A stretch of 63,702 nt of DNA, filler included, from Atractiella rhizophila (taxonomy: Eukaryota): NCBI GenBank assembly GCA_021432655.1. It is 5 parts of 5 records of this genome, joined end to end, with 100 filler letters (N's around TTAATTAATTAA, not from the genome) between each part and the next. Parts side by side here need not be neighbours in the genome. Positions count along the whole stretch, not along the records: positions 32,923 to 49,259 come from MU271906.1; 4 more parts are not named here. The stretch is one strand, 5' to 3'. The notes below the pieces were generated by a model. It did no database searches. It was given only the letters and a program-made list of their open reading frames with translations, and had not been told where the DNA came from. Shown here in pieces: positions 7,101 to 63,536 of the stretch. A program made the translations under genes and the position numbers. Within the stretch, counting starts at the first letter, position 1. Every line of letters starts with the position of its first letter.

Positions 7101-7613
7101 AAGGTAAATTTATTCCACTTCCTGGTTTTGCGACTCTCATATGCATGCGCTGGCTTATAACAGAGTCTACAAGAGAAACTACGGCGTCTACAATCCTCAG
7201 TCTTCCTCTCGGAAGAGAACAGAAATCCAGGCGTGGGATATTTTAGCTCCTTCTCCCGTTCGTCCACCACACTCCCTTCCAATCCATCCTCTCCACTTCC
7301 AACCGCCAAACCAACATCCACAACCGAAATCGGATCACAACCTTCTGTTCCTGCCTCCGAGAGGGCGAGCGAGGACAGTACTCCGGTATCGAACAAAGAG
7401 AAGGAGAGCGACGAAGCCCTCAACTTTGAGTATTTGAGGAATGTTATCATGCAGTTCTTGGATAAGAAGGAAATGAGGGTACGTCCTCCTTTTCCCTGCG
7501 GAACCACTGCTCAGGAACTCTGCTAGCCGCATCTTGTTAACGTCCTGGGGACGGTTTTGCATTTTACACCTCAAGAAGTGAGACGTTTGAAAGCCAAGGT
7601 GGCTACTAGCTAG
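4193..7613 (+). CDS. GRIP-domain trans-Golgi coiled-coil golgin (Imh1-like) with long Pro/Ser/Thr-rich N-terminal half
   Basis: ATG 4193 (MFSGLNLKNLGER|LNAG), long Glu/Arg coiled coil, C-terminal GRIP signature NFEYLRNVIMQFLDKKEMR|PHLVNVLGTVLHFTPQEVRRL; stop TAG 7611-7613. Confidence 0.85.
5004..5546 (+). repeat. In-frame intragenic tandem duplication (264 + 279 bp) in the golgin
   Basis: QQAAEASTS(P/L)PSDAALKVRKSEESVG...TPPTTTTPPPPD(P/T)KPL occurs twice (5004-5267, 5268-5546); the second copy has a 15-bp insertion (PTEVG). Confidence 0.95.
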
Positions 7614-16384: not shown

Positions 16385-16484
16385 NNNNNNNNNNNNNNNN
16401 NNNNNNNNNNNNNNNNNNNNNNNNNNNNTTAATTAATTAANNNNNNNNNNNNNNNNNNNNNNNNNNNNNNNNNNNNNNNNNNNN
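16385..16484. other. Artificial contig-joining spacer
   Basis: 44 N + TTAATTAATTAA (stops in all six frames) + 44 N; genes are cut at such spacers. Confidence 0.97.
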
Positions 16485-17928: not shown

Positions 17929-18441
17929 TCAATAGGCAGACGGTTTTGCGGCACCGGCGTGCTGAGAGATGAGAGCCTGAAGCCCTTTTGGTTCAGCGCT
18001 CACAAATGATCCGATCTTGTTTCCATCCTTGCTGTGTAGAATTGTCAAAGAAACAAGCCCCCAAAAAAAAGAAAGCGCACAAAGCCAAGAAAGTAGGGAC
18101 AGCCCTGACTCCAACTTCTTCAGCGATTTCCATCTCTGCGTCAATGTCCACCTTGTAGAAGCGGACGTCTGGGTTGTTTTCGTGGTGCTCGGACAGCTTG
18201 TCGAATACAGGAGAGATCATGCGGCATGGACCGCACCAAGTCGCCCCTTCGTGAAAGAGGCGTATGAAGAAGGCGTAAACGTTACAGCAGTCAATAAAAC
18301 AAGCTCTCACAGAAGTCGACGAAGATCACGTTCCCCGAATTGATCTTTCAGAGCAACACAACTTCAGTCGTGTATAAACGAACCGCAAGAACATACGACT
18401 TCGTCAAACTTGCTCTTTCCACTCAGAACCTCGACCGTCAT
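17929..18441 (-). CDS. Thioredoxin (paralogue a)
   Basis: MTVEVLSGKSKFDEV|INSGNVIFVDF|WATWCGPCRMISPVF...FYKVDID...VRAVPTFLA|.KDGNKIG; WCGPC active site; 3 introns. Confidence 0.93.
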
Positions 18442-19023: not shown

Positions 19024-19568
19024 TTATGCTGTGGGCTTATCGCTGGCACTGTGCTCGGAGATGAGGGCCTGAAGCCTCTTTGGGTCGGCACCCATCAGGC
19101 TTCCAAGTTTGTTGCCGTCTTTGCTGCAACCCCAAAACGCAACAAATCAACATTTGTCCAATATGGATCGCTACCTCATGTCGCTTGAGAGAGGAAAAGA
19201 CGTACAAAGCAATAAAGGTCGGCATGGCCCTTACTCCAACCTCTTCAGAGATATCCATCTCCTCGTCCACATCAACCTTGTAAAATTCAACGTTCTCGTT
19301 ATCCTTGTATTGCTCAGAGAGCTTGTCGAAGACGGGCGAGATCAGACGGCACGGTCCACACCATGTTGCCCCTGCATAACAAGAAAATTGGCAATTAGTA
19401 TTGTTTCTCGGGCAGCGAGCGACACGCTTACAGAAGTCAATGAAAACGACCTTGCCAGAGTTGATCTTTTCACACAAAACAACACGTTAATCTAGCTAGC
19501 GAGGATTAAAGAGAACCACATACAACTTCGGTGAATTTGGCTTTTCCGCTCAGAACTTGGACAGTCAT
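19024..19568 (-). CDS. Thioredoxin (paralogue b)
   Basis: MTVQVLSGKAKFTEV|INSGKVVFIDF|WATWCGPCRLISPVF...FYKVDVD...VRAMPTFIA|.KDGNKLG; same intron positions as paralogue a. Confidence 0.93.
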
Positions 19569-32822: not shown

Positions 32823-32922
32823 NNNNNNNNNNNNNNNNNNNNNNNNNNNNNNNNNNNNNNNNNNNNTTAATTAATTAANNNNNNNNNNNNNNNNNNNNNN
32901 NNNNNNNNNNNNNNNNNNNNNN
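32823..32922. other. Artificial contig-joining spacer
   Basis: 44 N + TTAATTAATTAA + 44 N. Confidence 0.97.
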
Positions 32923-33754
32923 ATCGTCAGTTTCACTTCGTCCAATAGAAGTGAGAATGTACCAGTAGCGGCGACGGCATTGTTGGTTGAAGCAACGGGC
33001 ACGCATCCACCGAATCTGCATGTCAAGTCGTCAACCACTCTCCCTCCACTTAAAAGGGGACAAAGCACGTACCCGGAGTTGTTCTTGCACTGGACGATGC
33101 AACCAGTGGCAGGGCAGGACGTCCCTGCTGGCATAGCAGCGACGAGAGACGACGCCTGACCGACGTTGTTGCCCACTAATGACAACACATCCCAGTCAGC
33201 AATTGCAACTACGTCGATTGAAAGAAGGGACGAACCGTTTGTCTTGATCGTCAAGGGAGTGTTGAACGAGTTTCCGGTACCAGTGGTATCCAGAGCGCAG
33301 GTGTAAGGTCCACCTCCATCACCGTTGATCTGTTCGGATGCCACGCATGAGCGCCTTTAATTCGTCCAAAAGGAAAGGAAGGACGAACGATGAAGACCTG
33401 CATGTTCAGGTTACCGTTGGCATCAGGGGTGGCAATGCCATTAGCCGTGGCTATTGCAATTCGTTTAGTAGGCTGAAATGGGAAGGGACTGGAGAAAAGA
33501 CGCTCACAGGCAGCGAGAGCTTGAGCGGTATTTCCAACTCCACAGCTGTTGCCGCTGACACGAATCGCCTGTCCTTGGTTAGGGGTCTGAGACTGAACAC
33601 CAAGGCCAACGTTGGTGACTCCGTTTCCTCCAGCGATCTGTTCCCTTCGTCAGTCCTTCTAAAGAGTTTAAAAAAGAAAGCCTACGTTGGTCAATGCGGC
33701 GTGGGCATTAACGAGGGAGAGAACGGAAAGGAGAGTGAGAGCAGATCGATACAT
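32923..33754 (-). CDS. Secreted compact Egh16/DUF3129-like protein, paralogue A (His1 retained), 3'-truncated at contig end
   Basis: MYRSALTLLSVLSLVNA-HAALTN|IAGGNGVTNVGLGV..SCG..NLNMQVFI|INGDGGGPYTCALDTTGTG..AMPAGTSCPATGCIVQCKN..FGGCVPV. Confidence 0.8.
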
Positions 33755-34882
33755 TTCCGAAGGTCGGTCAAAAAGTTAAACTGTTGAGTTGGGATAGAAA
33801 CCGAGAGACGAAGAAGTTGGACAGGCTTGCTGGTGAAGGATTAGGTGAAGTGAAAGAAAGCGAAAGTGAGGGGCAACGTTCAACGTTTGAAAACCTGAAG
33901 GGACTGGAAACTGTGGGCGAAATGAGCTCTGCTTGACCGCAAAACAAGGAACTCTGGGATTCTTATAGCCCCAGGCGGCCGATCCCAATCGGGTATTTTC
34001 ATCGCACGTCAGGACGCGTTGGGGTGGAGAAGTCACGCTCGGGCACGCGAGACAACAAGGATCGAGGGATTACATGCGTGGAAGATGCAGCGTTGAGATG
34101 GCAACCCAGATTTCGCCGCAAGGATCTACCTACTCCTCCGCTCCTGGAGAAGATTCTCTCTCTGCAGGAAGACAAGAGACGTCAAGGAAGAGAACAAGGA
34201 AGAAACAGAGGTAACTGTGCCAGCCGCAACTGGTGACGGAGCTAAAGAAATGGAAGGAAGAAACTTCTTGATGCGACACATAATATTACGGCCTGTCAAG
34301 ATCATCGAGATCTAGCTTTCTGTCGTGTGCTGAAGCAAGAGGAAGCTGGAGCGGCCATGGAAACGATCACGATGAGCCGGAATCAGATCTGCAGAAGGTT
34401 CTCAAAGCGCCAACAACAAGCACCTGCTCAGATGAAAAATCATTGCGAGAATGTGGGAAAGCCAGCACTACTGCACGGCACACAAGGAGAACAACAGTCC
34501 AATGCGACAATCTATGAGCTCTATTATGTTGATGTGGCATCTAAGTCTGGGCCATAGAACACACGAGCCGTTAAAATCCAAGTGAGAGAAGTTGAGTGAA
34601 TGCTGTTATTGAACCTCTACCCAGAAAACTTTTTCCCCAATATGTGACACGTCTGCCTATCAGCTCTATCATGATCGTACGTGCTGTCAGAACAACATTT
34701 CAATAAATAAAGCAAGCAAGAGTTCTTTCTTTTGACTCTGGAGGCATTCAACCTTGAGTACTCTGAGAGTACCTTCTTCGCTAAGAAACCACACTACAGC
34801 GTGGCGGTGCACGTGGACTTGAACCAGACTACGGCTGCTCCAGCGCCACGTTTTCGGCTTCCACCCTGCCACTCCAACTACC

Positions 34883-36748
34883 ATGTCGACGTCTTCTCAA
34901 TCCCCACCAGTCTCTCCTCCCCTGAATGGCGTTGCGCGCATGTCGCTCGACAGTGGGCGTGCAAGTCCCCGCGCATCGTTGGACGGAACGGGAGCAGGAG
35001 GAAGTGGGAGCAATGGTGATCGGGAGAGGCTGTTGAGAGATGAACTGGCAAAGGTCAAGGAGGAGAGGGATAACTTTGAAAATCAGTATAGAGGGTTACT
35101 GGGGAAGTTAACCAATATGAGGAATACTTTGGGTGATAAATTGAAGCAGGACGCGGTATGTTGTTTTTTGTAATTTGGGTAGAGAGAGATTCGTTGCTGT
35201 CACCTCGATTGCACAGTTGAGACTATATAGTTGGGTGAAATACAGCCTACTTCCCTCTACAACGCGAAACTACACAGGCCTCACGCTGACCTTCGCTCCT
35301 CTAGGATGAACTAGATAGGAGGGCGGCTCAAATCACCTCCTTGACATCCGAAATCGAGACGCTAAACAGCACCGTCTCCTCTCTACAAAGCGAGCTCCTT
35401 CTCACAACCACGGACACCTCCACCCTTTCTTCCGATTTAACCCTCCTACGGTCACGACTGTCCACAGCTGAAGGGATCCAAATAGAGCTACAGGATCGGC
35501 TAGAGAACGAGCGTCGGCTGAAGGAAGAATGGGAGGAAGAGGCTATGCGTGAGAAGGTACGACGAGAGGATGTAGAACGGCGCGCAGTTCTGGCGGAGGA
35601 AGAGAGAGAGAGGGCGAAAGCGGAGGAGAGGAGATTGCGGGAGGAATTGGAGAGAGAAAAGGCGGCGGCGGAGGATCTGGCGAGGGTGTTGGAGGAGTTT
35701 CAGGCTGGTATGTAACCGCCAGACCATCGCGAGCGTGGAGCTGACTCCGATATGCGGTGGATAGGGAAGGAGAGAGAGATGGAGAATCTTGTTGGAGATG
35801 TGAAAAGCCAACTCGACGCTGCTGTCAAAGGATTAGCAGAGTACAAGAAGCGTGCATCCGTTGCTGAGGTATTTTGTCCTTTCCTTGACGTCTGCTTTCT
35901 TGACGGATCGTGGTTGTGAATAGGCACGATTATCCGCCGTACACACAGACTCAGAGAAATCCATGGCACTAGCAAAGGAATTGAAGGAGAAGAACGTGAT
36001 GATTGGGAAACTGAGGCACGATGGTGCGAACGCATTCTTATCATTCTTTTTGTTGGCAGGCTGATGGAAGAAATGATTAGCGGCGATTATGAATGAGCAT
36101 CTCACAGAAGCTATGCGGCGTTTAAAGCGAGACAGCACCGAAAACAATGTAGACCGGTACGTCACTCTCCTCCTCATTCCTCGCCTTGCAGTTTGACGAA
36201 TCCGTCATGCAAAGACGACTAGTCACCAACGTACTCATAACCTTTCTCCGTACCCCTCGGGCGGATACAAAGCGTTACGAAATGCTGCAGCTCCTCTCCT
36301 CTGTCCTTTCATGGACAGACGAAGAGCGAGAACGAGCAGGTTTGCAGAAGGCAGTTGGCGGGGAAGGCACAAGGCCGAATACCAGCACGGGGAGAGTACA
36401 AATGCAGAGGAAGGGGAGTGGAAAGGAGGAAGAAGCGGATAACGAGGCGAGTTTCCCTGTGTTCGCCCTTGGTGTATATGGTCGCTGATAGGGTGGATGG
36501 GATAGTCCTTCTCGAACTTATTCGTTGAATTTCTTCTTCGGGAAGCTGGTCAAGCGGCCCCTTCTTCTGCTTCAAAATCAACTCCCGCGCCGACTCCAAC
36601 TCTGTTCTCACCCACAGCTTCTACGCCAGGTTCACCCAGAAGCTCCATCCTGGCGCTCTCCCCTCCACCTCCAAGTCAGAAATTCAAGCTTCCTGAGATA
36701 CCGCCTTTCAATCCGGATAGGTTGAGGAAGGGACAAAATATTCGTTAA
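34883..36748 (+). CDS. RUD3: GRAB-domain cis-Golgi golgin (Rud3/GMAP-210-like)
   Basis: QYRGLLGKLTNMRNTLGDKLKQDA, IGKLRHDAAIMNEHLTEAMRRLK, VDRRLVTNVLITFL..KRYEMLQLLSSVLSWTDEERERAGL (GRAB) and SFSNLFVEFLLREA (GA1 motif). Confidence 0.88.
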
Positions 36749-38253
36749 CGGTAGTTACGATCTGCACGCAGGGAGGCACGTGCATTTGGAGGATTTGAGG
36801 ATGATTCGTCCATTGTTCGCGTCATTGGTTTCATTGGTTGCACTCCGTATCATGTATTTATGCCTTTCAATCTTCGTAACCTTCATCTCCTCACTTATGA
36901 CCATGTTGGGCGGTATTGGATGAGCATCAACGGTGGAACACTGCCCTTTTGAGCTGGCTCTTTATTTGGTGAACTCTGTCAATTCTTCGTTGGGGAATTG
37001 GAGATTGTGGTCAATGGTGGAGAATGCTTTGAATCCACTGTCGCCCAAACTTGCATCTTCGTAGATTACATTAGGACCTGTTAGCGGCATGCGGCATTCT
37101 GCTTATTCTCATCTCCCTCAGCAAGCTGGCAAAGGACATTAGAAGGGAGCATCCGTAGTTTGATTCAAGTTTCGAATGCACAGCCCTAGTCGTAGTGTGC
37201 TTGCTGAGAGAAGTCGCCTTTCACCGACAACTTCGATTCTTGAATACTCCATTCAACGAAGGTCACAGCTCAAGCGCTCATGACAGAGCTGATATACTGA
37301 TGCGCTTTGCGAGCGAATTCAAGGGAACTCTGAGCACTTCTGAGCATCCCAGAAAACTGATTGTTGGGGAACTCATGTAGACCTGTCATCTTCCAAAAGG
37401 CAGGGTTGCCAACTGATAATCTATTTCTCATTTGAGGCTGCTGCTCGTCGTTTTTACGCTGTGAGAGGCTTCTGAATATCTTTTAGGCCACGTCGTGACG
37501 TTTCCATGGCCTCTGAGTACCACTTCAATTCCCGTTGCTTCAGCGCGCAGCAGCTAACTGCGCATATTGTAGCAGCCAGGTTCATCTTGTCTTAGTATCA
37601 TTGTTACATTCAGGTTTAGTCTGCTTTAGCACTCAGCAGCTACTGATAACTGCGGCATTCAAGTGGTGGTAGTCAGCTGCGTCTTGCGTTAGGTACTGTA
37701 ATTGCGGCATTGTGGTGGCTAGTGTGATCCTGCTGCTGGACGCAGTGGTTGACTGTAACAATCATTGCGGCAGCTGTACGCGCTGGGAGGTGGCATCAAG
37801 ACGCCTTACATTCCTCAGTTTCCTCTGCCTCGTCAGCAGAGTAGTGAGCACTGTATTGCTTGCTCGATGTGTGACTTCTTGCTACTCTGGGACGACAGAG
37901 AATTCTAAACCCACAGACTCTCCCCAGACCAAATCCTTGCGGCGAAGTTGGTGTTGTCAACTCTACGCATGCTGCATTTTTTACGCAGACGTACTTAGTT
38001 CTTTGCGTGACTTACCATCGCGACACAGGAACTCAATTTGGGATGGGCCTGAGGGTATAAAAACGCCAGACTTCCTCTCATTTTATCATCAAACACATCC
38101 AGAGCTCGCCTACTTCTACTCAATCCTAGTTTTGAACGTTGAACGTCCTTCGCTTTTCGCTCACCATCACTTCACCTAACTTTTTCACCAGCAAGTCTGC
38201 TTTAATATTTAGCTTCTCCCACTTCAACAGTCCATTTTTTTCGACAATCGGAA

Positions 38254-41200
38254 ATGGATCGATCAGCTCTCGCTCTCCTCTCGGTGCTCTCGCTCGTTAA
38301 TGCCCAAGCCGCACTGACCAACGTATGATTTCTTCCCATCTTTCGAGAGCCGTCCGGAGCAGAAACTTACGAAGAAATTAGATCGTGGGGGGCAACGGAG
38401 TCACAAACGTTGGCCTTGGTGTCCAGTCCCAGACTCCAAATTCAGGGCAGGGCATTACTGTCAGCGGAGGCGGTTGCGGAGCTGCAAACACTGCTCAAGC
38501 TCTCGCTACCTGTGAGCACCATCCCCCATCCTCCCTCTGTCTCGCCTTTTGCATGACTGATGACACAACAATAGCGACGGCTAATGGCATTGCCACCCCT
38601 GATGACAGTGGAAACCTGAACATGGAGGTGTTCATCGTGCGTCTTTCCCTCCTATTGGAATAAACCAATAGAATTCACGTATTGTATGTGAGCAGATCAA
38701 TAGCCAGGGAGAGGGACCTTATACCTGCGCTTTGGATACCACTGGCGCAGGAAACTCGTTCAACACTCCTTTGACAATCAAGACCAACGGTTAGCTCTTT
38801 CTTACAGCCCTCAAGTCTCAGGTGTTAACTCGAGTATACCGCACATCCAGTAAACAACCAAGTTGGTCAGGCGTGTTCTCTCGTCGCTGCCATGCCATCA
38901 GGAATCACTTGTCCCTCCGCCGGCTGCATTGTCCAATGCAAGAATAGTGCTGGGTAAGCAGAACTTATCCTGTCTGTAGACTGGAATAAAACTGAATATT
39001 GACTACCAGATTCGGTGGGTGTGTACCCGTTGCACCATCCAATACGGCAACCGGCTCCAGTGGTAGGTCTTCCCCCTCTCCTCGATTGTAACTGACGATC
39101 CGTAGGAACGGACGGCAATACGGGATCTGCTGCCACAGGCAACAGTGGAAATGCTGGCAATGCTGGCGACACCGGCAATAATGGAAATACTGGCAACACT
39201 GGGAATACTGGCAACGCTGGAAATGCCGGCAACACTGGAAACCCTGGCAACTCTGGAAGCCCTGGACAGGTCGCGAAGAGAGGTACATATTATCTCACTT
39301 CAGTGTTGCTTATGACAGCGCTGACCTACTTGTGAAGCCACACCACCTGGTAACGGTGCAGACCCGAACGTAAACGTCAAGGACCCCGAACCGTCAGCAA
39401 TTTCCACTCCTCGTTCTTCACACTGACAATCTTTCCATTTGACAGTCAGCGGAATCCTCCTGTCCAACCCCCACCGAGCCCCACTCCCCCAGCCCCAAAG
39501 CCAGGCAAGGCTGGAAAGCCTGCGAAGAGAGGTACATATTATCTCACTTCAGAATTGCTTATGACGGCGCTGACCCACATGTGAAGCCACACCACCTGGT
39601 AACGGTGCAGGCCCGAACGTAAACGTCAAGGACCCCCAGCCGTCAGTAATTCCTCTGTTTGTTCTTCAATCTGACAATCCATTCATTTGACAGTCAGCGG
39701 AATCCTCCTGTCCAGCCCCCACCAAGCCCCACTCCCCCTGCCCCAAAGCCTGGCAAGGCGGGAAAGCCTGAGAAGAGAGGTACATATCATCATCACTTCA
39801 GGTGACTTATTTCACGACACTAATGGCGTGGACTCACACATCGGACCAGTCCACACCACCCCGGTATACAGGTGCAGGACGCCAGAACGTAATAAACGTC
39901 AACAGGACCCCCAGCCGTCAGTAATTCCCTCTGCTTGTTCTTCAAATTTGACAATCCGTTCGTATTTGGCAGTCAACGGAATCCTCCTGTCCAGCCCCCA
40001 CCAAGCCCCACTCCCCCTGCCCCAAAGCCAGGCAAGGCTGGAAAGCCTGCGAAGAGAGGTACATATCATCTCGTTACTTACAACAACGCTGACCTACATG
40101 TTCAGCCACGCCACCCGGTAACGGTGCGGCGGGGAATAATGTCAACAACGGAAACCCTGGTGCGTCCTCCCCCCTCCTGCCTGTAGGAGGCTGAAGCGAT
40201 TTTACAGGTGCTCAAGGACAAGGAAACGCGAACCAGAACGGAAACCAGGACGGAAACCAGAATGGAAACCAGAACGTAAACCAGAATGTAAACGGCAACG
40301 ACCCCCAGCCGTCAGTAATTCCCACCCCTCGTTCCTCACACTGACAATCTGTTCATTTGACAGTCAGCGGAATCCTCCTGTCCAACCCCCACCGAGCCCC
40401 ACTCCCCCAGCCCCAAAGCCTGGCAAGGCTGGAAAGCCTGTGAAGAGAGGTACATATCATGCCACTTCAATGTTATTTACGACAATGCTGACCTACATGT
40501 CCAGCCACACCACCGGGTAACGGTGCGACGGGGGACAATGTCAACAACGGAAACCCTGGTGCGTCCTCCCCCCTCCTGCCTGTAGGAGGCTGAAACGATT
40601 TTATAGGCGCTCAAGGACAAGGAAACGCGAACCAGAACGGAAACCAAAATGGAAACCAGAATGTGAACCAGAATGTAAACGCCAACAACCCGCAGCCGTG
40701 AGTAAATCCCACTCCTCATTCTTCACTCTGACAAATTGTTCATTTGACAGTCAACCGAATCCTCCTGTCCAACCCCCACCAAGCCCCACTCCCCCAGCCC
40801 CAAAGCCTGGCAAGGCTGGAAAGCCTGTGAAGAGAGGTACATATCATCTCATTTCGATGTTACTTACAACAACGCTGACCTACATGTCCAGCCACACCAC
40901 CCGGTAACGGTGCGGCGGGGAACAAAGTAAACACTGGTACGTCATCTCTACCTGCACACTAGTGTCATTTGTACTACGTTGTAGCTGCAGCTGACAACAA
41001 TTCCTCCAGGCGCGACTGCCACCACCCAAAGAAATGGAAACCAAAACCCGAACCCAAATGTAAACACAAACGCCGCCACGAACGGCCGTGAGCCGTCAGT
41101 GATTCCTACTTCATTCCTCGTTACCGTTGTGGTCTGACGATATTTGCACATTCGATAGTCAACAAAACCCTGCTGTCAGGCCTCCCCCCAGCAAGGTCCC

Positions 41201-41285
41201 GCAGCCCCCTGCTGGACAGGCGCATGCGAATGGACCGGTTGGAGGGAGAATGGTGAAGGCCATGAAGAAGAGGAGGATGCACTAA
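38254..41285 (+). CDS. Secreted compact Egh16/DUF3129-like protein, paralogue B, with G-N-X linker and six KR-delimited repeat peptides
   Basis: MDRSALALLSVLSLVNA-QAALTN; same exon structure as paralogues A and C; tail spliced through canonical GT..CTGAC..AG introns in one open frame to TAA 41283-41285. Confidence 0.8.
39283..41158 (+). repeat. Tandemly duplicated exon-intron modules (~250-390 bp)
   Basis: Exon encoding Q(R/P)NPPVQPPPSPTPPAPKPGKAGKP(A/E/V)KR starts at 39446, 39694, 39973, 40364 and 40751; the flanking introns (GTACAT... and GT(C/G)AG...) repeat with it. Confidence 0.93.
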
Positions 41286-42599
41286 GCAGCATTTAAGCAG
41301 CACTAAAGGACGCTTCTAGTTTGAAATTGATAGTTACCAAGCGATGTAATACGAGCCAGCGTGACTAGGAGAGAGTGAAAGGACATTCTAGCGTTTGCTC
41401 ACATAATTTGCATCCTGGCACTGGTCTCTGTCTCAGCGAAGGAAGAACATGCAACTGGCATCAAAATTGTTGGTAAAACTAACTGTAAAACCACTCCTCC
41501 ACATGTGTTGGTGTTTGCACGGTAACGCAGCCACTGTGTTACCGAGTCGCGTTCTACAACCTTACGTGGAAGGTAACTGTGCCACGTGCCAAATTACACG
41601 CTCATCAAGGGTCCGCACACAGTGCTCATTACTCAGTCGTAGTTGTAGATGTATCCCTCCATTCTGAGTATCCGCCAAGGACCGGGATATTATTAGTTTA
41701 CTTAAATTTTACAGCAAACTGCGTTCAGGAAATGTCCATCTGTAGTCTGGTTTAAGTCTGAAGAGCACAGCCTCGATGTAGTGTGCTATCTTAGCGAATT
41801 TGCGTTCTCGCTCAAGCTAAAGCTCGGTTCTTACTTACTATGCTTAGTGAAATCGTCGGGAAGATAATGCGGTCATACGCTCATGATAGAGTTCAAACAC
41901 CGGTGTTTATTTTGGTGATCCAATCTGAGCACATATTTAGTCGACTTGGGTAGATTATGTCGGGGGATGTTGATGTGCCATCTCCTTGGAGGACAGGATT
42001 ACCTACAAATGACTTATTATTGTCTACACTTGCTGCTTGTCGTTTTTACGCCGTGAGAGGTTTCCGAATGTCCAGTTGGGCCACGTCGTGATGTTTCCAT
42101 GGCCCCTAAGTGCAATGTTTCAACTTCGTCTCCCTTCATGACGCAGCATCTAACTGCGGCATCCCTGTGTGTAGTCATCCTCGCCTTGCTTTTTGGTACC
42201 AAGCAGCTGACTGCGATATCATTGTGGTGCTTTAGCGCTTCACTTTACTGGGGCATCTTTGCGATTCTCCAGACAAAATCCTTGCGGCGAAGTTGGGGTT
42301 GTCATCTAGACGTACGGTGTATTTTACGCGCAGGTGATGTTCGGTGTTCGCGTGACTTATCCATTACAACCCAAGAAGCCAATTTGGGATACGTCTGGCT
42401 ATAAAAGCCATAGACTTCCTCGGTTGAGGTCAACAAATCCACCTTGCCTTCTTTCCAGTGCCTCAAGTTTCCAACGTTGAACGTCGCCATTCGCTTTCAC
42501 TCTCAATACTCCACCTGAGTCTTTCCCCAGCCAGCCAGCCTGTTCCACATCTTCGCGTCTCTCCTTCCTATTTCAACAGTCATATATTTTGCCTTTACC

Positions 42600-44013
42600 A
42601 TGGATCGATCTGCCATTGTCCTCCTATCCCTTCTCTCGCTTGTTAATGCCCAGTCCGCACTGATCAACGTATGTCAACTCCTATCTTCCTAAACCCCCTG
42701 CTTCTGAGCTGACGAAAATAGATTGTGGGAGGAAACGGAGTCACCAACGTTGGCCTTGGCGTTCAATCCCAGACCCCAAGCGAAGCACAGGGAATCACCG
42801 TCAGTGACAACAGTTGCGGAGCATCGAACACTAATCAAGCTCTCGCGACCTGTGAGCATCCAAATCTTACCCCGCGTCATATACTGACAAGGATGCAGCA
42901 ACGGCGGAGGGCATTGCCACGCCTGATGCCAGCGGTAACTTGAACATGGAGGTTTTCATCGTCAGTATTTCTCCCTCCATTTGAATTGAAGACACTCACG
43001 CGTTGTACGGAATAGATCAACAGCAATGGAGATGGACCTTACACCTGCGCTTTGGATACAAGCGGCACTGGAGACTCCTTCGACACTCCTTTGACAATCA
43101 AAACTAATGGTTCGTGCCTCCTTTAGCCAATATGGTCTCAACTGCTAACTCGGATATCTGGTGCATCCAGTAAACAATAAAGTTGGCGAAGCGTGCTCCC
43201 TCGTTGCCGCCATGCCATCAGGAATCACCTGTCCTACTACCGGTTGCATCGTGCAATGCAAGAATAGCGCCGGGTACGCCTGCTCTATCATTTATGCGGA
43301 GGGAAGAGAAATTGAAGTGCAACGAGCAGATTCGGCGGATGTGTGCCCGTCCTCCCTTCTAACAACGCTGCCGCCTCCACCGGTAGGATTCCCTCTCTTG
43401 ATCCGTTGGATGAGGGAGAACTGACGTTTGGTAGGGACAACCGGTTCTACGACTAATACTGGAAGTGCTGTTGGAAGCAGTGACGACACTGGAAATGCCG
43501 AAAATACCGGAGACACTGGAAGTGCCGGAGACTCTGGTAACACAGGGGATGCTAGCGACAGTGGAAACGGTGCAAACGGAAACAACGCGGTGAAGAGGGG
43601 TACATATCCACTCACGCCAGTTTATCGCATCAACGCTGACCTACATGGTGTAGCTGCCACGTCACCCAGTAACCCAGTGAAGAAAGCAAACGCAGGTGAA
43701 TCCATCCTATAAATCAATAGATCTTTGCCTGACAACGATGTATCCAGGCGCAGCAACCAAGAAACCGAAGACGAGCGCAAAACCGTCAGCCATCCCCTTT
43801 CCTTATCTGCATTTCCCTGATATTAACGGAATCATTCCGTCGACAGTAAATCAACTGTCAAACCGAAAACGAGCGCCAAGCCGTCAGTCGTCCCTTTTCC
43901 TCATCTCAAATTTCTCTGATCCTAAGCCAAGTTATTCACATGCCAGCACGTGTGGTGATAGCAAGTCGGTAGGAATAGGAATATATTTTGCGTGCTGCCC
44001 AAACTGGTACTGA
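42600..44013 (+). CDS. Secreted compact Egh16/DUF3129-like protein, paralogue C, with short Gly/Ser/Thr linker, AVKR site and KPKTSAKP mini-repeats
   Basis: MDRSAIVLLSLLSLVNA-QSALIN|IVGGNGVTNVGLGV..FI|INSNGDGPYTC..CPTTGCIVQCKNSAG|FGGCVP; 3' end of the model uncertain. Confidence 0.75.
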
Positions 44014-44820
44014 GTGCGTACATGAAAACTTGGAAATATAGTGGCGGGTGTTCTTGAGAAAGTCTTAAGACTCATCTGGCGGTCTTATGTGCACAGCCAC
44101 GAAAAGCTTGGCACATGTAGTTTCTGATAAACTTTGTGCTTTTTTTTCAAAAAGTGGTGACTTTGTCCACTGAAGAGGGGGCCCCTGCTCCCCGGCGGCG
44201 AGTCGAACAGCAGAGTTTATATTATACAGTGGGTCAGTTACACGCACATTTCTGATTTCTGAACGCGGCTTTCTCAAGCAGTTGGATCTTGTGTGTTATG
44301 CTACAATCCGGAACTGCTTTGCATTCCTTATTGGCATCACACATTGTGCGACCCGTTTCGCATAATGATGATGCAAATAAAAAGACTCGTGTATAGTGCC
44401 CGAGGCTAATATACTACATCGGCTACCCGTTATGGTAAACGACCTTTGACGTTCTAGTAGCTTTTGTTCTTTTTTTTTAAGGGGGAGAGCCGGACGGTGA
44501 GAGCGGAGAGGAATATGAGGCTATAGACTGGCAAATCTCGGAAGAGAGAAAATAAAGTCCTAAGCTCCACCTCCCTTGTTTACTGTCCTTGTTTTGTCTT
44601 ATATTAAGGTAGGCAGAACAATGTAGATATGATATATCGTTTATAGTTGCAGGTACGTGGCAAAGTGTTGGTAGTATCATAATTAAGTTTGTCTGTTTCG
44701 CAGGAATTACCAAGGAGGGGTAGGGGAAGTTTCGGGAGGTGCAGGAGGAGGAGTAGACAGGGAATCGGACAGGTCGTCAGCAAAACCCCGAGAACGACCT
44801 CACTCAGAAGCGGCGTCCTC

Positions 44821-45341
44821 AGCTAAATGACAGCTGCCTTGGTAAAACAATCATATCCTCTTTACGTCACTCTGTTCCCTCCTGACTGCCAAACCACCGG
44901 CGAAATCCGAACTGTCATACTCAGCTAAATGACCACTACTCTGCTAAAATAATCATATTCCCCTTTACGTCCTACTCTTTCCCTACCGACTGCCGAACCG
45001 CGAGTAAAATCCAAACCGTCAACTAAATGACAACTGCTTTGCAAAGCAATCATAGTCTCTTTTAAACTTCCCCTGCTGACTGCCAAACCACCAGCGAAAT
45101 CCGAACTGTCATACTCAGCTAAATGACAACTACCCTGTTAAAACAATCATATTCCCCTATACGTCCTCTTCTTTCCCTACCGACTGCCGAACCGCGAGCG
45201 AAAGCCAAACTGTCAACTAAATGACAGGTGCCTTGCTAAAGAAATCCTAGTCTCTTTAAACTCTACTCCTTTTCCCTGCTGACTGCCGAACCACGAGCGA
45301 AAGCCAAACTGTCAACTAAATGACAGGTGCCTTGCTAAAGC
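44821..45341. repeat. ~98-bp tandem satellite, at least 5 units, running into an assembly gap
   Basis: Units begin A(G/A)CTAAATGAC at 44821, 44923, 45021, 45117, 45215 and 45314; shared GACTGCC(A/G)AACC core. Confidence 0.9.
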
Positions 45342-46080
45342 NNNNNNNNNNNNNNNNNNNNNNNNNNNNNNNNNNNNNNNNNNNNNNNNNNNNNNNNNNN
45401 NNNNNNNNNNNNNNNNNNNNNNNNNNNNNNNNNNNNNNNNNNNNNNNNNNNNNNNNNNNNNNNNNNNNNNNNNNNNNNNNNNNNNNNNNNNNNNNNNNNN
45501 NNNNNNNNNNNNNNNNNNNNNNNNNNNNNNNNNNNNNNNNNNNNNNNNNNNNNNNNNNNNNNNNNNNNNNNNNNNNNNNNNNNNNNNNNNNNNNNNNNNN
45601 NNNNNNNNNNNNNNNNNNNNNNNNNNNNNNNNNNNNNNNNNNNNNNNNNNNNNNNNNNNNNNNNNNNNNNNNNNNNNNNNNNNNNNNNNNNNNNNNNNNN
45701 NNNNNNNNNNNNNNNNNNNNNNNNNNNNNNNNNNNNNNNNNNNNNNNNNNNNNNNNNNNNNNNNNNNNNNNNNNNNNNNNNNNNNNNNNNNNNNNNNNNN
45801 NNNNNNNNNNNNNNNNNNNNNNNNNNNNNNNNNNNNNNNNNNNNNNNNNNNNNNNNNNNNNNNNNNNNNNNNNNNNNNNNNNNNNNNNNNNNNNNNNNNN
45901 NNNNNNNNNNNNNNNNNNNNNNNNNNNNNNNNNNNNNNNNNNNNNNNNNNNNNNNNNNNNNNNNNNNNNNNNNNNNNNNNNNNNNNNNNNNNNNNNNNNN
46001 NNNNNNNNNNNNNNNNNNNNNNNNNNNNNNNNNNNNNNNNNNNNNNNNNNNNNNNNNNNNNNNNNNNNNNNNNNNNNNNN
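45342..46080. other. Scaffold gap (N run)
   Basis: 739 N without the spacer motif. Confidence 0.98.
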
Positions 46081-49000
46081 GGCGAAGCCGTGTACGACTT
46101 CCTTCGTCACTCCATTCCTCCCTCCAGCTATACCAACTCAAATAACTCGGACAACTTGAACAATGAGGATGGAGGTGGAGCAAGGGATGGAGTGTGTGAG
46201 GAGATGCGGTGGAGGGACTTACCTTCTATCGTTGCGCTGGTCAAAGATCTCCGAGTCAAAGCGGCTTCCAACGCTCGCACAGTGGGCGGTGAAGCTGAAA
46301 CAGCGGTGCTGGCGAAGGACAAGGAAGGAGCAAAGGGAAAGGGAAAGGGAAAAGGAACGGGGAGAGGAAGGAAGAGGAAGATCGATGCCGTCGATGGAAA
46401 TCCGGAGGAGAGAAAGGAAGTAGGAGGAGGGAAGAAACGTCTTCTTCCCCGACTGGTCGAGTTGTCCTTCCTCCTCTCGAACCATTACATCCGTCTCCAA
46501 TACCGTCTCCGTCCATCCTCTCATCCCTCACCCTCACCCTCAACACCGACACCAAGCTCTCCGTCCACCTCGAACACAACAACACCGAATCCAAGACCAC
46601 AAACAGCTACAGGAACGGGAACGGGAACGGGCACGGGAACCCTCCACCTCCTCCTCTACCTCGTCCCCCACGACCTCCCCCACCTCTCCTCCCTCCTCTC
46701 CTCCGCCCGCCCCTCCCAGTCTTACGCTTACGCTTACGCTTACGGCGTCCACGGAGCCAGAGGCGAGAGCGTGCAGAGGAAGGCGAGGGCTTATTTGAAG
46801 GATTTGTTGTCTGAGACCGTATTGGGCTGGTTTGAGCATGAGGAGGGGGCTAGGAAGGTGTTGGAGAGGGATAGGGTGCGTTTTTTGATTTCTTTTGATT
46901 TTGTTCCGTTCTAGATTCGTCATCCTATCCTCCATCCTTTTTTAAGAGAAAGAGACATCAATCCTCTCTTTGACGATAGACGTTTTACAGCGCAGGAACC
47001 AAATCTTTTCGTTGCTTCTGAATTTTAGAGAGGTACCACTTTCGTTCTCCGTACCGCCGTCTCAATAATCATTTAGTGAAGAAGAATTATTCTATCCCAT
47101 GTTCAGGTCTGTCATAAGGATCCGAGTCACGTTGTGATCCTATTCGTTGATCATATTACAGTATTTCTCTCCAATAAAACCACTTTTAGTTAAGGATCCA
47201 TTCTATTCTGCTCGTGATATACAATGGAGACGACGAACAGAATCATACTTTGTTAATCCTGTTCGGTTAGGGATAAGGATCATATCGTCTCTCTCTTTAG
47301 TGACAGATCCTTTTTCGAGCTGAGGGATCACATATTGTTAGGCTGCATCAGAGACGTCCTAATCTTTCAGTGACAAGGATCATATTACCTTCTCGTGGGA
47401 GTAGATTCCTTTGGAGACGGGTAATTACGCATTTGCTGCTCGTGATTCTCGTATGTGATGGGATGAACTGTCGTCTTGACGTTCTAGATATGGATATCCT
47501 ATTCTTTGAGAGATGAAAATCATCTTGCCTCTCTCTTCAGCCATAGACCATCGTTAGGGACGAGGGTTACGTCGTTTCCCGCTCGTGAATCTCGTTAGAG
47601 ACGACGGTTTGACTGCTTATTGCTTAGAGATTTTCCCCTCTCTTTTGTGAGTGATCCTCTATGGACATTCGGCATTATATCATTCCCTTTTCAGCATTTT
47701 TGTAAAAGATGTGGACCACACGACTTTATGTCCTTTTAGAAATATTTCGTCACTTCTATTTATTCCTTTGGAGAAAAGATCGGACTACCTCCCTTTTTCG
47801 CGCTAACTGCTTTTTCTCTCGATTCTCTATAGGGAGACGACTAGGAGCGATTGCTTCTGACCTAAGAATTTTGTTCCCAAATGTTTATCGTGTCCGATAA
47901 ATATGATATCAAAGAAAAGAATTTATAAGTGTGCTGCATCGCGGCATCTCACGATGGCTTCTACCGAAAGAGAATGCTCTTGCAACTGTATTTAAGGAAT
48001 CGGAGAAATATCTTAATTATTTGATGTGGACGGCTAGGACCCGAAGTCGCTCTTGGAGATCTACAATGGCCTGCCGTCTCCTTCTCCCTCTCTCCCGCAC
48101 CTCTCCCATATATTTCCCCCCTCCCCACCATCTAACGCCATCCATCACCGTGCGCTACATCCCTCCTCCTCCTCCGCATCCTCCTCCGCCGATACAGCCC
48201 TCTCTCAAATGAAACTACGATCGGACCTTCGTACACTCCTTCGTTCAGAGCAGGGAGAGTGGGAGAGGGAACACGGGATACGGAGCGAGTTGTATGGTTA
48301 TCAGAGAGGAAGTGTATTCGCTTTGAGGGTGAGAGAGGCGGGGACGGAGTGGAGGGTCGATCCGAGGTGGAGGTGGGTCGAGATGTTGGAGAATGAGGAA
48401 AGGGATGAGTCGGAGCGGATGGAGGTGGATCCTAAGGACCCTTCTGTGGATTCTAAGTTGAATGGGATGGCGACAAAGAAGAAGGGCTACTGGTTGGATG
48501 AGAACTTGATGTGCCATTTGAATCCTCAATACTTCATGGACAGTCGTGGAGGTATCTTGTATGTTCCATCTGCTTTCTTTCCTTCGCCGACCTCGATACT
48601 AACTCAGTTTCTTTGATGTGGGAAAGGTGCGACGAGATGGGAACCGGAAAGACATTCATATCCCTCGCACTCATCATGTCCACCAAAGGCTCTCTCGCCG
48701 ACATCACGGACGTCCAACGGGAGGCTCCCTTCTTCCCAAAGCCGGTTGTCATGAGCGATCTGTCTGCGTCATGGGGGTTCAAAGAATACGTAGAGGAACG
48801 ATCCAAAGTGGGATTCGAAGACGTGACACACGCCCAAGAGCAGAGGAAGGTGAGGATTCCGAGTCTACGACATTTAGCGGCGCATCGTCTGTTGTGCTCA
48901 GGGAGGGAGACCAACCCTTTGGAAGGCGTGGATAAGGAACGGATGCGCGGGATGGAAGTGTCGAATGTGATCAAGGAGCTGGAGTCGAATCCACCTTATT

Positions 49001-49259
49001 ATTTCCTGCCCTATGTTTCTCGCCTCGGATACACTTACAACGTCAACCCGACCTCCATTTCCTCCACACGCACTCCAACCCCGACACCCAAGGTGCGCGG
49101 TCAACCTGCTACTCCAGAGTACAGGAAGCTGTACGTCTCAAAGACCAACCTGGTCATCGTCCCGTCGAATTTGGTAGTACAGTGGAAGGAAGAGATCGCG
49201 AAGCACATCGTGGAAGGCGAGCTAAAGGTGTTTGTGTGGGCAAAGAAAGCTTTGCCTTC
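46081..49259 (+). CDS. SNF2-family (Rad5/Rad16-like) ATPase, partial
   Basis: DPKSLLEIYNGLPSP, LYGYQRGSV, RGGIL|CDEMGTGKTFISLALI (Walker A), TNLVIVPSNLVVQWKEEIAKH (motif Ia); first visible exon joined by a 1162-nt intron 46876-48037; truncated by gap and spacer. Confidence 0.8.
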
Positions 49260-49359
49260 NNNNNNNNNNNNNNNNNNNNNNNNNNNNNNNNNNNNNNNNN
49301 NNNTTAATTAATTAANNNNNNNNNNNNNNNNNNNNNNNNNNNNNNNNNNNNNNNNNNNN
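49260..49359. other. Artificial contig-joining spacer
   Basis: 44 N + TTAATTAATTAA + 44 N. Confidence 0.97.
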
Positions 49360-60949: not shown

Positions 60950-61049
60950 NNNNNNNNNNNNNNNNNNNNNNNNNNNNNNNNNNNNNNNNNNNNTTAATTA
61001 ATTAANNNNNNNNNNNNNNNNNNNNNNNNNNNNNNNNNNNNNNNNNNNN
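60950..61049. other. Artificial contig-joining spacer
   Basis: 44 N + TTAATTAATTAA + 44 N. Confidence 0.97.
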
Positions 61050-61940: not shown

Positions 61941-63536
61941 TTAAGCCTCGACGAGGAAGAAAGAGACGGTATCGGTAACGTCTCCGTAGACGTTGACGAA
62001 AGTCTCAAGGTCTCCAGTCACGTCGAGATCGCCAAAGGACAGGTTGTGGAAGATCGTAGCAGGGACCTCGGCTGCAGAAACCATCCGTGAATCCTCTATC
62101 GTTGGAGAAGAAGAGACTTACATCCGTCATCGTTGGTCCAGGTGACAGTGAGCTCACCAGTGGTGCAATCGATGTTCCAGATGGCAGACTCAGCGGGCTG
62201 TCCAGTCGGGTTATCAGTGACAGTCGCTGGAGCGGGAGCGTTCGCGGTAGCAGTGAGGAGTCCATATCTGTTCCCCCTTCAATAAACAACCAAATCTCCC
62301 ATTGGATCGACGAGGCGTACCCGGAGCTTCCAGGTCCCCAGTTCGAGCCAGAGAAACCAGAGGTGGAGCCGATGAAGGGCCAGTCGAATCCTTCCACGGC
62401 CAGGTTGAAGCCGGTCTTCTCTCCCGAAGGACGGGTGAAGGTGGCAGCTGCGTTGGCGTTGGAGGTGATGGTGAAAGTGGCGTAATCGGCTGTGNNNNNN
62501 NNNNNNNNNNNNNNNNNNNNNNNNNNNNNNNNNNNNNNNNNNNNNNNNNNNNNNNNNNNNNNNNNNNNNNNNNNNNNNNNNNNNNNNNNNNNNNNNNNNN
62601 NNNNNNNNNNNNNNNNNNNNNNNNNNNNNNNNNNNNNNNNNNNNNNNNNNNNNNNNNNNNNNNNNNNNNNNNNNNNNNNNNNNNNNNNNNNNNNNNNNNN
62701 NNNNNNNNNNNNNNNNNNNNNNNNNNNNNNNNNNNNNNNNNNNNNNNNNNNNNNNNNNNNNNNNNNNNNNNNNNNNNNNNNNNNNNNNNNNNNNNNNNNN
62801 NNNNNNNNNNNNNNNNNNNNNNNNNNNNNNNNNNNNNNNNNNNNNTCCACGGCCAGGTTGAAGCCGGTCTTCTCTCCCGAAGGACGGGTGAAGGTGGCAG
62901 CTGCGTTGGCGTTGGAGGTGATGGTGAAAGTGGCGTAATCGGCTGTGGAGATTGCGTTCAGTTGTGGAAGAAAGGAATGGTGGAAGTGAGGAGAGACGCA
63001 CTGAAGTCTTGGGAGACGTATCCCAGAGTTCCACTGTCGCTCACGACGACAATGTTACCGGTTTTCCTAATATCCCTTCCAAGTGAGCTTCAAACAACCT
63101 CCGTAAAGGATTTACTGACGGGCAAGTAGGAGTTCCGGAGGGTCCAGGGGTCCTCGCGGCTGCACGCACGTTGCGCGGTCAATCGCAGTTCAAAGCGGTG
63201 AAAGGAAATCGCACCCAATTCCTTATGGAAGTTCTTGAGCCTCCTAGGAGCATGCCTCTTGCTGCCACCGTGGCTGGGAGCGAAACCCCTCTCGAGGAGC
63301 TGAGCGTTCGTGAGGGGAGTGGTCTTGGCAAAGGTGGTCTTGGAGACGGTGCCGTCGTGGATGGCCTTGTTGAGTGCGAAGAGGTTGAACTCCCTGTCGA
63401 GGACGGGATGGGAGACTGGCTTTCCTCGAACGAGGTTGCTGTAGGTCGCAAAGTCGGACACTTTGCTGGTGGTGGTCGTGGCAGCAGACGCGACGGAGGC
63501 GAGGAGAGCGACGGAGACGGAAACGAAGGATTTCAT
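61941..63536 (-). CDS. Uncharacterised secreted protein interrupted by an assembly gap
   Basis: Signal peptide MKSFVSVSVALLASVASA, TNAQLLERG motif, C-terminal ESAIWNIDCTTGELTVTWTNDDG...DLETFVNVYG; spliced exons; stop at 61941-61943. Confidence 0.65.
62393..62947. other. N gap (62495-62845) flanked by an identical 102-bp sequence on both sides (unmerged contig overlap)
   Basis: 62393-62494 equals 62846-62947. Confidence 0.9.

Follow-up and report, generated by a model that had tools for sequence, protein, structure and literature searches.

An expressed, under-annotated gene of Atractiella rhizophila joining an Egh16-like domain, a collagen-like spacer and a KR-delimited repeat tail

Atractiella rhizophila is a Pucciniomycotina fungus known in the literature as a root associate. 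In a 63,702-nucleotide stretch of its DNA (assembly GCA_021432655.1), a preliminary description made from the sequence alone had placed at positions 38254-41285 an Egh16-like domain fused to an array of repeat peptides delimited by Lys-Arg (KR) sites, which raised the question whether this locus is one expressed gene and whether its product would be a precursor for the protease Kex2. The whole stretch, called the window here, consists of five joined parts that are not necessarily neighbours in the genome; positions 32,923-49,259 come from MU271906.1. Reading the region across its introns gave 22 exons on the + strand and a single open frame of 1854 nt for 617 aa, with the start codon at 38254 and the stop codon TAA at 41283-41285, both where they had first been described; all 21 introns run from GT to AG and are 43-73 nt long. 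The gene is real, expressed and under-annotated. That it encodes a Kex2-processed repeat protein (KEP) resembling Rep1 and Hum3 of Ustilago maydis, with peptides acting at the fungal or plant wall surface, is the reading that we favour, and we give it about an even chance.

The spliced peptide chain described at the outset was reproduced in its order (VAKR, followed by KPAKR, KPEKR, KPAKR, KPVKR, KPVKR and a terminal variant). Its six KR sites were also found again, but the count for the tail came to seven, with an extra NKR site that a degenerate exon in unit 3 would contribute. The parts of the gene, in which each repeat unit is built from an exon a and an exon b with or without an inserted exon between them, are as follows.

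38056..38062, + strand: TATAAAA motif about 190 nt 5' of the start codon, by sequence reading a possible core promoter element.
38254..38304, + strand: predicted signal peptide (residues 1-17; the predicted cut follows VNA; n-h-c layout, boundary in the family alignment).
38305..39062, + strand: Egh16-like domain with the fold of lytic polysaccharide monooxygenases (LPMOs), from the end of exon 1 to exon 6 (PF11327, structure model, RNA joints at introns 1-6).
38254-38322, 38382-38511, 38575-38636, 38696-38789, 38851-38953 and 39010-39062, + strand: exons 1-6 (gene model).
39106..39282, + strand: exon 7, Gly/Asn-rich collagen-like spacer ending in VAKR (PF01391, Tandem Repeats Finder, RNA contigs).
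39283..39531, + strand: repeat unit 1, 47 aa, ending in KPAKR; exon a 39338-39392, exon b 39446-39531 (gene model, unit alignment, loose ends of RNA contigs).
39532..39779, + strand: repeat unit 2, 47 aa, ending in KPEKR; exon a 39587-39641, exon b 39694-39779 (gene model, unit alignment, loose end).
39780..40058, + strand: repeat unit 3, ending in KPAKR; degenerate exon a 39850-39916, intact exon b 39973-40058 (gene model, unit alignment).
40059..40449, + strand: repeat unit 4, 81 aa, ending in KPVKR; exons 40106-40159, 40208-40310 (Asn/Gln-rich insert) and 40364-40449 (gene model, RNA).
40450..40836, + strand: repeat unit 5, 77 aa, ending in KPVKR; exons 40505-40558, 40607-40697 and 40751-40836 (gene model, RNA joints).
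40837..41285, + strand: terminal variant, 85 aa, with a basic C-terminus; exons 40892-40936, 41010-41094 and 41159-41285, KKRR codons at 41265-41276 (gene model, RNA joints).

Contigs from four public runs, one on record as RNA and three guessed to be RNA, were placed on 38100-41400; the sampled-word shares were low (0.06-0.19) across the 20 listed runs, and neither habitat nor strain was read from them. As these contigs lack the introns, they derive from spliced RNA. Their joints agreed exactly with introns 1-5 and approximately with intron 6. Contigs reached 39280 in exon 7, where a loose end specific for the 3' end of this exon joins the next exon at about 39338. Further loose ends showed the junction types expected within the array, from exon a to exon b and from a KR donor to exon a, and one before 39694 carries a 3' end matching exon a of unit 2. 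In unit 4, a loose end from run X1 shows exon b following directly on the insert exon's end. Downstream of this, complete joints were detected, namely 40558>40607 (intron 17), which like 40159>40208 (intron 14) came from run X6, 40697>40751 (intron 18) in all four runs, and 40936>41010 and 41094>41159 (introns 20 and 21) in three of the four. The exons of units 4 and 5 that the public annotation omits are expressed and spliced as predicted. The exon chain beyond 39283, on which the preliminary description had made its own claim depend, is transcribed and spliced in frame in the RNA contigs. RNA cover is already present at 38100, the left edge of the region examined, and contigs extend to 41381, so that the 3' untranslated region measures 96 nt or more. 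Some joints, with skips of 447, 1360 or 1653 nt, lie between near-identical units and are for that reason ambiguous. Around the degenerate exon 39850-39916, depth was low or absent in the bins of 39765-39986 in each of these runs, from which nothing was concluded.

Searching with the frame of exons 2 and 3 recovered four A. rhizophila proteins. One of them, KAH8914678.1 (P0001, 361 aa), is identical to the 617-aa model over the first 273 and the last 87 residues and therefore represents the same gene. The public model connects exon 8 with exon 11 and the latter with exon 20, and thereby lacks exons 9-10 and 12-19; the b exon that it uses is that of unit 2, and the exons of unit 4 are missing from it. 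Another contig carries a second copy or allele, KAH8926072.1 (P0005), which is modelled in the same short form. Residues ~23-52 of P0005 match what exons 4 and 5 give when translated in wrong frames, as present among the open reading frames (ORFs) listed for the window, and this copy consequently either carries an indel or is mis-modelled. Behind the short public form may stand either repeats that collapsed when short reads were assembled into transcripts or genuine skipping of exons. That the gene would be invisible in an ORF track had been foreseen and was borne out: the exons measure 45-177 nt, any stop-to-stop frame holds at most one or two of them, and the region 37800-41700 is without a long ORF.

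Both borders of every repeat unit are phase-1 introns, and the intron separating exons a and b is of phase 2. Given these phase-1 boundaries, the frame is kept by an unequal exchange between like introns, or when a KR donor is spliced to an a exon further on; skipping both exons of unit 3 would likewise preserve it. The phase symmetry explains how the array could have grown and why a short isoform like the annotated one is possible.

The tail comprises 388 aa with 24% Pro, 15.5% Asn, 7% Lys and 5% Arg, and its repeat begins within the last codons of exon 7. Five units with a near-identical last exon (86 nt, 28 codons) ending in KP(A/E/V)KR are followed by the terminal variant; units 1 and 2 consist of two exons, and units 4 and 5 have an additional Asn/Gln-rich exon. 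Exon a of unit 3 is frameshifted relative to its siblings and remains open, and would contribute a Cys besides the NKR site. Tandem Repeats Finder independently detected the array with a period of 249 (3.1 copies, 86% matches, 39273-40072) and a period of 387 (2.7 copies, 87% matches, 39893-40933). From the composition of the tail, 1.37 KR dipeptides would be expected for the seven observed, a number reached in one of 20000 shuffles. The five b-exon copies R1-R5 differ in eight columns, six of them third-position synonymous and two non-synonymous (binomial P = 0.006), with a mean proportion of synonymous differences (pS) of 0.151 and of non-synonymous differences (pN) of 0.020 (ratio 0.13). 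In exon b of unit 3, divergence is limited to synonymous changes, as it is in its sister copies. Compared in pairs, the b exons are on average 94.7% identical, and the two intron classes 80.3% and 72.1%; together with the low pN/pS, this indicates that each copy is kept as coding sequence, and the substitution pattern identifies purifying selection on the peptide rather than decaying pseudo-exons.

The tail is predicted to be disordered, with a predicted local distance difference test score (pLDDT) of about 50 throughout. A search of the ESM Atlas with the tail led to no usable feature match, and the structural hits had TM scores of at most 0.45 on disordered models. Among 1.84 billion representative sequences, 233 matches were obtained at E <= 1e-3, of which P0005 alone matched the tail; the remainder covered the Egh16 domain or the collagen-like run. 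A metagenome scan with P0001 gave four loci, all of them matching the G-N-X spacer only (query residues 172-224) and none representing the gene. Two further features of the tail were rejected by inspection: a Ste13 signature after KR, as the residues there are Ala-Thr-Pro-Pro and not X-Ala/X-Pro dipeptide repeats, and glycosylphosphatidylinositol (GPI) anchoring, as the C-terminus is basic and not hydrophobic.

The N-terminal part of the protein begins with a predicted signal peptide, judged by inspection from its basic start, hydrophobic core and V/A at -3/-1. Its boundary aligns with the boundary between signal peptide and His of other members in a family alignment (A1) of 48 of the 56 local matches; the eight omitted were N-terminally truncated fragments and one 672-aa protein. 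The Egh16-like assignment made from the sequence was confirmed by Pfam, since P0001 matches PF11327 (Egh16-like, formerly DUF3129) with 53.9 bits against a cutoff of 25 (E 4.3e-14), and exons 4 and 5 taken alone match positions 99-130 and 141-177 of the profile in collinear order. Exons 2 and 3 with the in-frame intron read through gave no Pfam match. Cys residues are present at 55, 98, 139 and 144, in columns where 39-46 of the 48 sequences of A1 have Cys. The first residue after the predicted cleavage, residue 18, is Gln; its column has 45 occupied cells, 39 with His, five with Gln and one with Asp. Gln also stands at residue 91, in place of the Asp of the N-x-D-G-x-G-P-Y motif that 44 of 48 sequences have. 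This Asp is absent in four of the five sequences with Gln at position 18 and in none of the 39 with His, as would fit two residues working as one site. Both residues are lost jointly in P0001, P0002, P0017 and P0083. As the conserved His is a feature of the family and not a criterion of the Pfam profile, the protein stays in the Egh16-like family as a divergent member.

Modelling by AlphaFold2 with the 48-sequence alignment led to a beta-sandwich over residues 18-162, with a pLDDT of 87-96 over 61-160 and of about 50 for the remainder. In an exhaustive structure comparison the top match was the AA15 LPMO 5msz_A (Z 9.9, root-mean-square deviation 3.0, 130 residues); LPMO or LPMO-like chains made up 12 of the 13 best matches, only one chain reaching Z >= 8. 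Residue 18 of the model aligns with residue 1 of the LPMO chains, at a sequence identity of 8-15%. Foldseek against the PDB gave nothing at E <= 0.001, the best match again being 5msz (5.6e-3). Passages of PMC6950343 describe Egh16-like proteins as LPMO relatives, distant at the level of profiles, in which the His directly after the signal peptide and the Asp are conserved, and for the Egh16-like protein TrsA, parts of PMC12377627 report a copper-dependent oxidase activity that is reduced by mutation of this His. The domain studied here shares with LPMOs (AA15, AA10, AA11, AA13, X325) the fold and a mature N-terminus at the position of LPMO His1; it differs in having no histidine brace, and it is not classed as an LPMO, as the N-terminal His of the brace is replaced by Gln. 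With Gln at both putative copper-site positions, the domain is probably non-catalytic and would serve as a binding or carrier module. We infer that the tail-bearing branch gave up the metal site.

Between this domain and the tail, the preliminary description had seen a linker, which could now be characterised further as collagen-like. It contains 15 uninterrupted G-X-Y triplets (residues 182-226, 39138-39272), followed by the codons of the first KR at 39276-39281, within the VAKR at the end of exon 7. Exon 7 alone matches the Pfam Collagen profile PF01391 with 36 bits (E 5.9e-9), and within P0001 the score is 29.9 against a cutoff of 27.2. Tandem Repeats Finder detected arrays of 9, 18 and 27 nt at 39138-39258. 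Most residues at X and Y are Asn, Thr or Ala, and the predicted pLDDT in the spacer is 42-52. Fungal collagen-like surface proteins such as MCL1 of Metarhizium are secreted, as is predicted here, and likewise have a Cys-containing N-terminal domain followed by a G-X-Y run. In contrast to these, the triplets of exon 7 contain much Asn and hardly any Pro, and a hydrophobic GPI-type C-terminus is absent.

The nearest known systems each share a part of this architecture. With the Egh16-like family in general and TrsA from Arthrobotrys flagrans (RVD87167.1) in particular, the protein has in common a signal peptide (here a predicted one) directly followed by the domain, conserved cysteines, the motif G-x-G-P-Y-x-C and, as often in the family, a basic low-complexity C-terminal extension. 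An LPMO-like beta-sandwich is likewise reported for TrsA in the parts of PMC12377627 cited above; the same source gives the N-terminal His as needed for the oxidase activity of TrsA, whereas this gene has Gln. KR-delimited repeats were found in no other member among the 56 Egh16-like proteins examined. Rep1 and Hum3 resemble the protein in having a signal peptide, here a predicted one, and imperfect tandem repeats of tens of residues with KR between them, according to passages of PMC4617103 and PMC6339444; in those of PMC4617103 the Rep1 units are given as 34-55 aa, close in size to those described here, with documented processing, and Hum3 as a precursor that combines repeats with a hydrophobin domain. 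The repeats studied here would not be expected to be related in sequence to those of Rep1 and Hum3, from which they differ in being Pro-rich and cationic, not amphipathic; the folded domain belongs to a different family and stands at the N-terminus. Processing is an established fact for Rep1, whereas here it is predicted from the sequence.

The preliminary description had called the architecture unfamiliar in the literature. This holds insofar as a literature search found no paper combining 'Egh16' and 'Kex2', but Additional file 3 of Umemura 2020 (PMC7329392) lists RVD86777.1 of Arthrobotrys flagrans as a KEP with the label 'Egh16-like'. It is the sole 'Egh16' entry in the three supplementary files, the main text having none; it is an ascomycete protein distinct from TrsA, and no other earlier listing was found in which an Egh16-like protein passes a KEP screen. 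The word 'Atractiella' occurs neither in the main text and two supplementary files of Le Marquer 2019 nor in the main text and three supplementary files of Umemura 2020. KEPs with extra domains, such as Hum3, are already known; the interest of this gene lies in the combination of a dead LPMO fold with a collagen-like spacer and a KR-repeat array, in the phase-symmetric cassette of mini-exons and in the putative release of peptides.

By tblastn, three Egh16-like genes stand in tandem in the window, at 33754-32937 (-), 38254-41285 (+) and 42600-43886 (+). The two paralogues are:

42600..43886, + strand: sister paralogue, P0002-like, with the same exon plan (tblastn, sequence reading, boundary motifs).
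32937..33754, - strand: second paralogue, P0004-like, with the His after the signal peptide kept (tblastn, translation of exon 1).

The sister paralogue has Gln after the signal peptide, a G-X-Y-like spacer and VKR at the same phase-1 intron, followed by Lys/Pro mini-exons. It seems broken off after ~43890, and a 99/194-nt tandem array at 44877-45339 runs into a gap of 739 N; at its end, the public model P0002 runs on into an intron. The 3' part of the P0004-like paralogue abuts the N stretch 32823-32922, and its public model is marked partial.

Would the tail of the 617-aa product be cut by Kex2? KEPs are defined, in passages of PMC6339444 and PMC7329392, by a signal peptide, at least three repeats and KR, RR or KK between the repeats. 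The 617-aa product agrees with this definition in its repeats and in the KR at the end of every unit, and a signal peptide is predicted for it from inspection and alignment; with the domain and the exon chain, this upholds in part the interpretation first proposed, to which the loss of the conserved His and Asp from the domain is now added. The KR at the boundary of spacer and tail is kept in P0002, P0003 and the second copy P0005 despite diverged flanks. When cleavage is simulated in silico, the Egh16-like domain and the spacer together form an acidic module of ~210 aa (pI 4.1), alongside cationic peptides with pI 9.5-12. In the favoured reading, Kex2 would cut after each exposed KR of the disordered tail in the late secretory pathway, releasing the acidic module and six or seven cationic proline-rich peptides, from which a Kex1-type activity would trim the C-terminal basic residues; the number of repeats could change without breaking the frame through unequal crossing-over or exon skipping. 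Several observations weigh against Kex2 processing of such an array. All KR sites at unit ends are copies of one ancestral KR, and since they were copied by DNA duplication, their recurrence is not independent evidence. They lie inside a generally Lys-rich stretch, and P4 is Pro in every unit, unlike the aliphatic or basic residue that yeast Kex2 prefers at this position. Moreover, the Lys/Pro mini-exons of the sister paralogue have no KR between units, only that at the boundary, and at least five K/R are found among the last 20 residues in 26 of 42 family tails of at least 30 aa in which repeats are absent. The public models P0001 and P0005 show one unit and the terminal variant, and the short contigs cannot give the number of units per mRNA.

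The same basic ends of repeat-free Egh16-like proteins, and the Lys/Pro-rich tail of the paralogue, would suit a substantial minority possibility, in which the tail stays uncut or is cut at the first KR only and acts as a polycationic proline-rich tether or adhesin. It would attach the Egh16-like module to anionic polymers in the fungal or root wall, with the collagen-like run as spacer and the repeat number tuning reach or avidity. The predicted disorder and the Pro, Lys and Arg content of the tail agree with this, and the loss of His and Asp suits binding rather than catalysis. It is opposed by the strong over-representation of KR in the tail, by the conservation of the first KR across paralogues at the exact module boundary, and by the general experience that KR exposed in disordered regions of secretory proteins is usually a good Kex2 substrate. 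An explanation that we regard as unlikely takes the annotated 361-aa form as the main product, the extra units being skipped or confined to minor isoforms and the array being mainly a substrate on which alternative splicing can draw, or an expansion of recent date. The short form indeed occurs in two independent public models (P0001 and P0005), all KR donors and a-exon acceptors are of phase 1, which keeps any skip in frame, and the joints 39531>40892 and 39392>39697 are compatible with skipping. However, these joints have sides of 20-25 nt and are ambiguous between near-identical units, exons specific for units 4 and 5 are found correctly spliced in RNA contigs, with 40697>40751 in every one of the four runs, and the b-exon copies are under purifying selection; in addition, repeats collapse in short-read transcript assemblies, and the P0005 model is visibly faulty, with exons 4 and 5 partly in wrong frames. 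A rather improbable reading combines skipping and processing in a splice-tunable peptide factory, in which exon skipping would set the number of Kex2-released peptides per transcript, with the 361-aa form as one isoform. The LPMO-fold domain with its dead copper site would then be a secretion carrier or wall dock, and the peptides, which resemble plant proline-rich wall proteins in composition, would be wall mimics or antimicrobials of the root apoplast, shaping colonisation by the endophytic fungus. Hardly plausible is a precursor of a ribosomally synthesised peptide modified after translation (RiPP) of the ustiloxin type, whose cores would be cut by Kex2 and then modified: the signal peptide and the KR-separated repeats are all that is shared, the units of 47-81 aa are rich in Pro, Asn and Gln, and no DUF3328/UstYa domain or other sign of a RiPP-type cluster was detected by Pfam in 116 of the 120 stop-to-stop ORFs of at least 110 aa in the window (the four omitted overlap the gene), a weak test that would miss genes with short exons.

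The Pfam matches of these 116 ORFs were all to housekeeping families (Ada3, two thioredoxin-like, TCP-1, cyclin, GRAB, HA2 helicase and RING). The ORFs 17996-18325 (-) and 19040-19486 (-) both match positions 27-77 of the Thioredoxin profile, which suggests a tandem pair or a two-domain gene of the protein disulfide isomerase type. At 4269-7157 (+), an uninterrupted ORF of 963 aa without a Pfam match at E <= 1e-4 is followed by a short GRIP-domain ORF (7161-7523) and may encode a long coiled-coil golgin. Paired runs of 44 N with 12 bases between them were noted at 16385-16484, 32823-32922, 49260-49359 and 60950-61049, which are the 100-letter filler joins given in the heading of the stretch; longer N runs lie at 45342-46080 and 62495-62845.

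The locus represents a putatively secreted repeat protein that is doubly hidden, as mini-exons defeat ORF scans and the collapse of repeats defeats gene catalogues. Since the public 361-aa model has too few repeats, KEP surveys based on annotation would miss the gene. Its phase-symmetric exon cassette illustrates cleanly how repeats can expand by way of introns. For the Egh16-like family, which is being recast as LPMO-like copper enzymes, the gene ties in a lineage-specific branch that has lost the ligands and gained a spacer and a KR-repeat tail, and it is a candidate for an enzyme fold that a fungus of plant roots has converted to carrying or anchoring secreted peptides.

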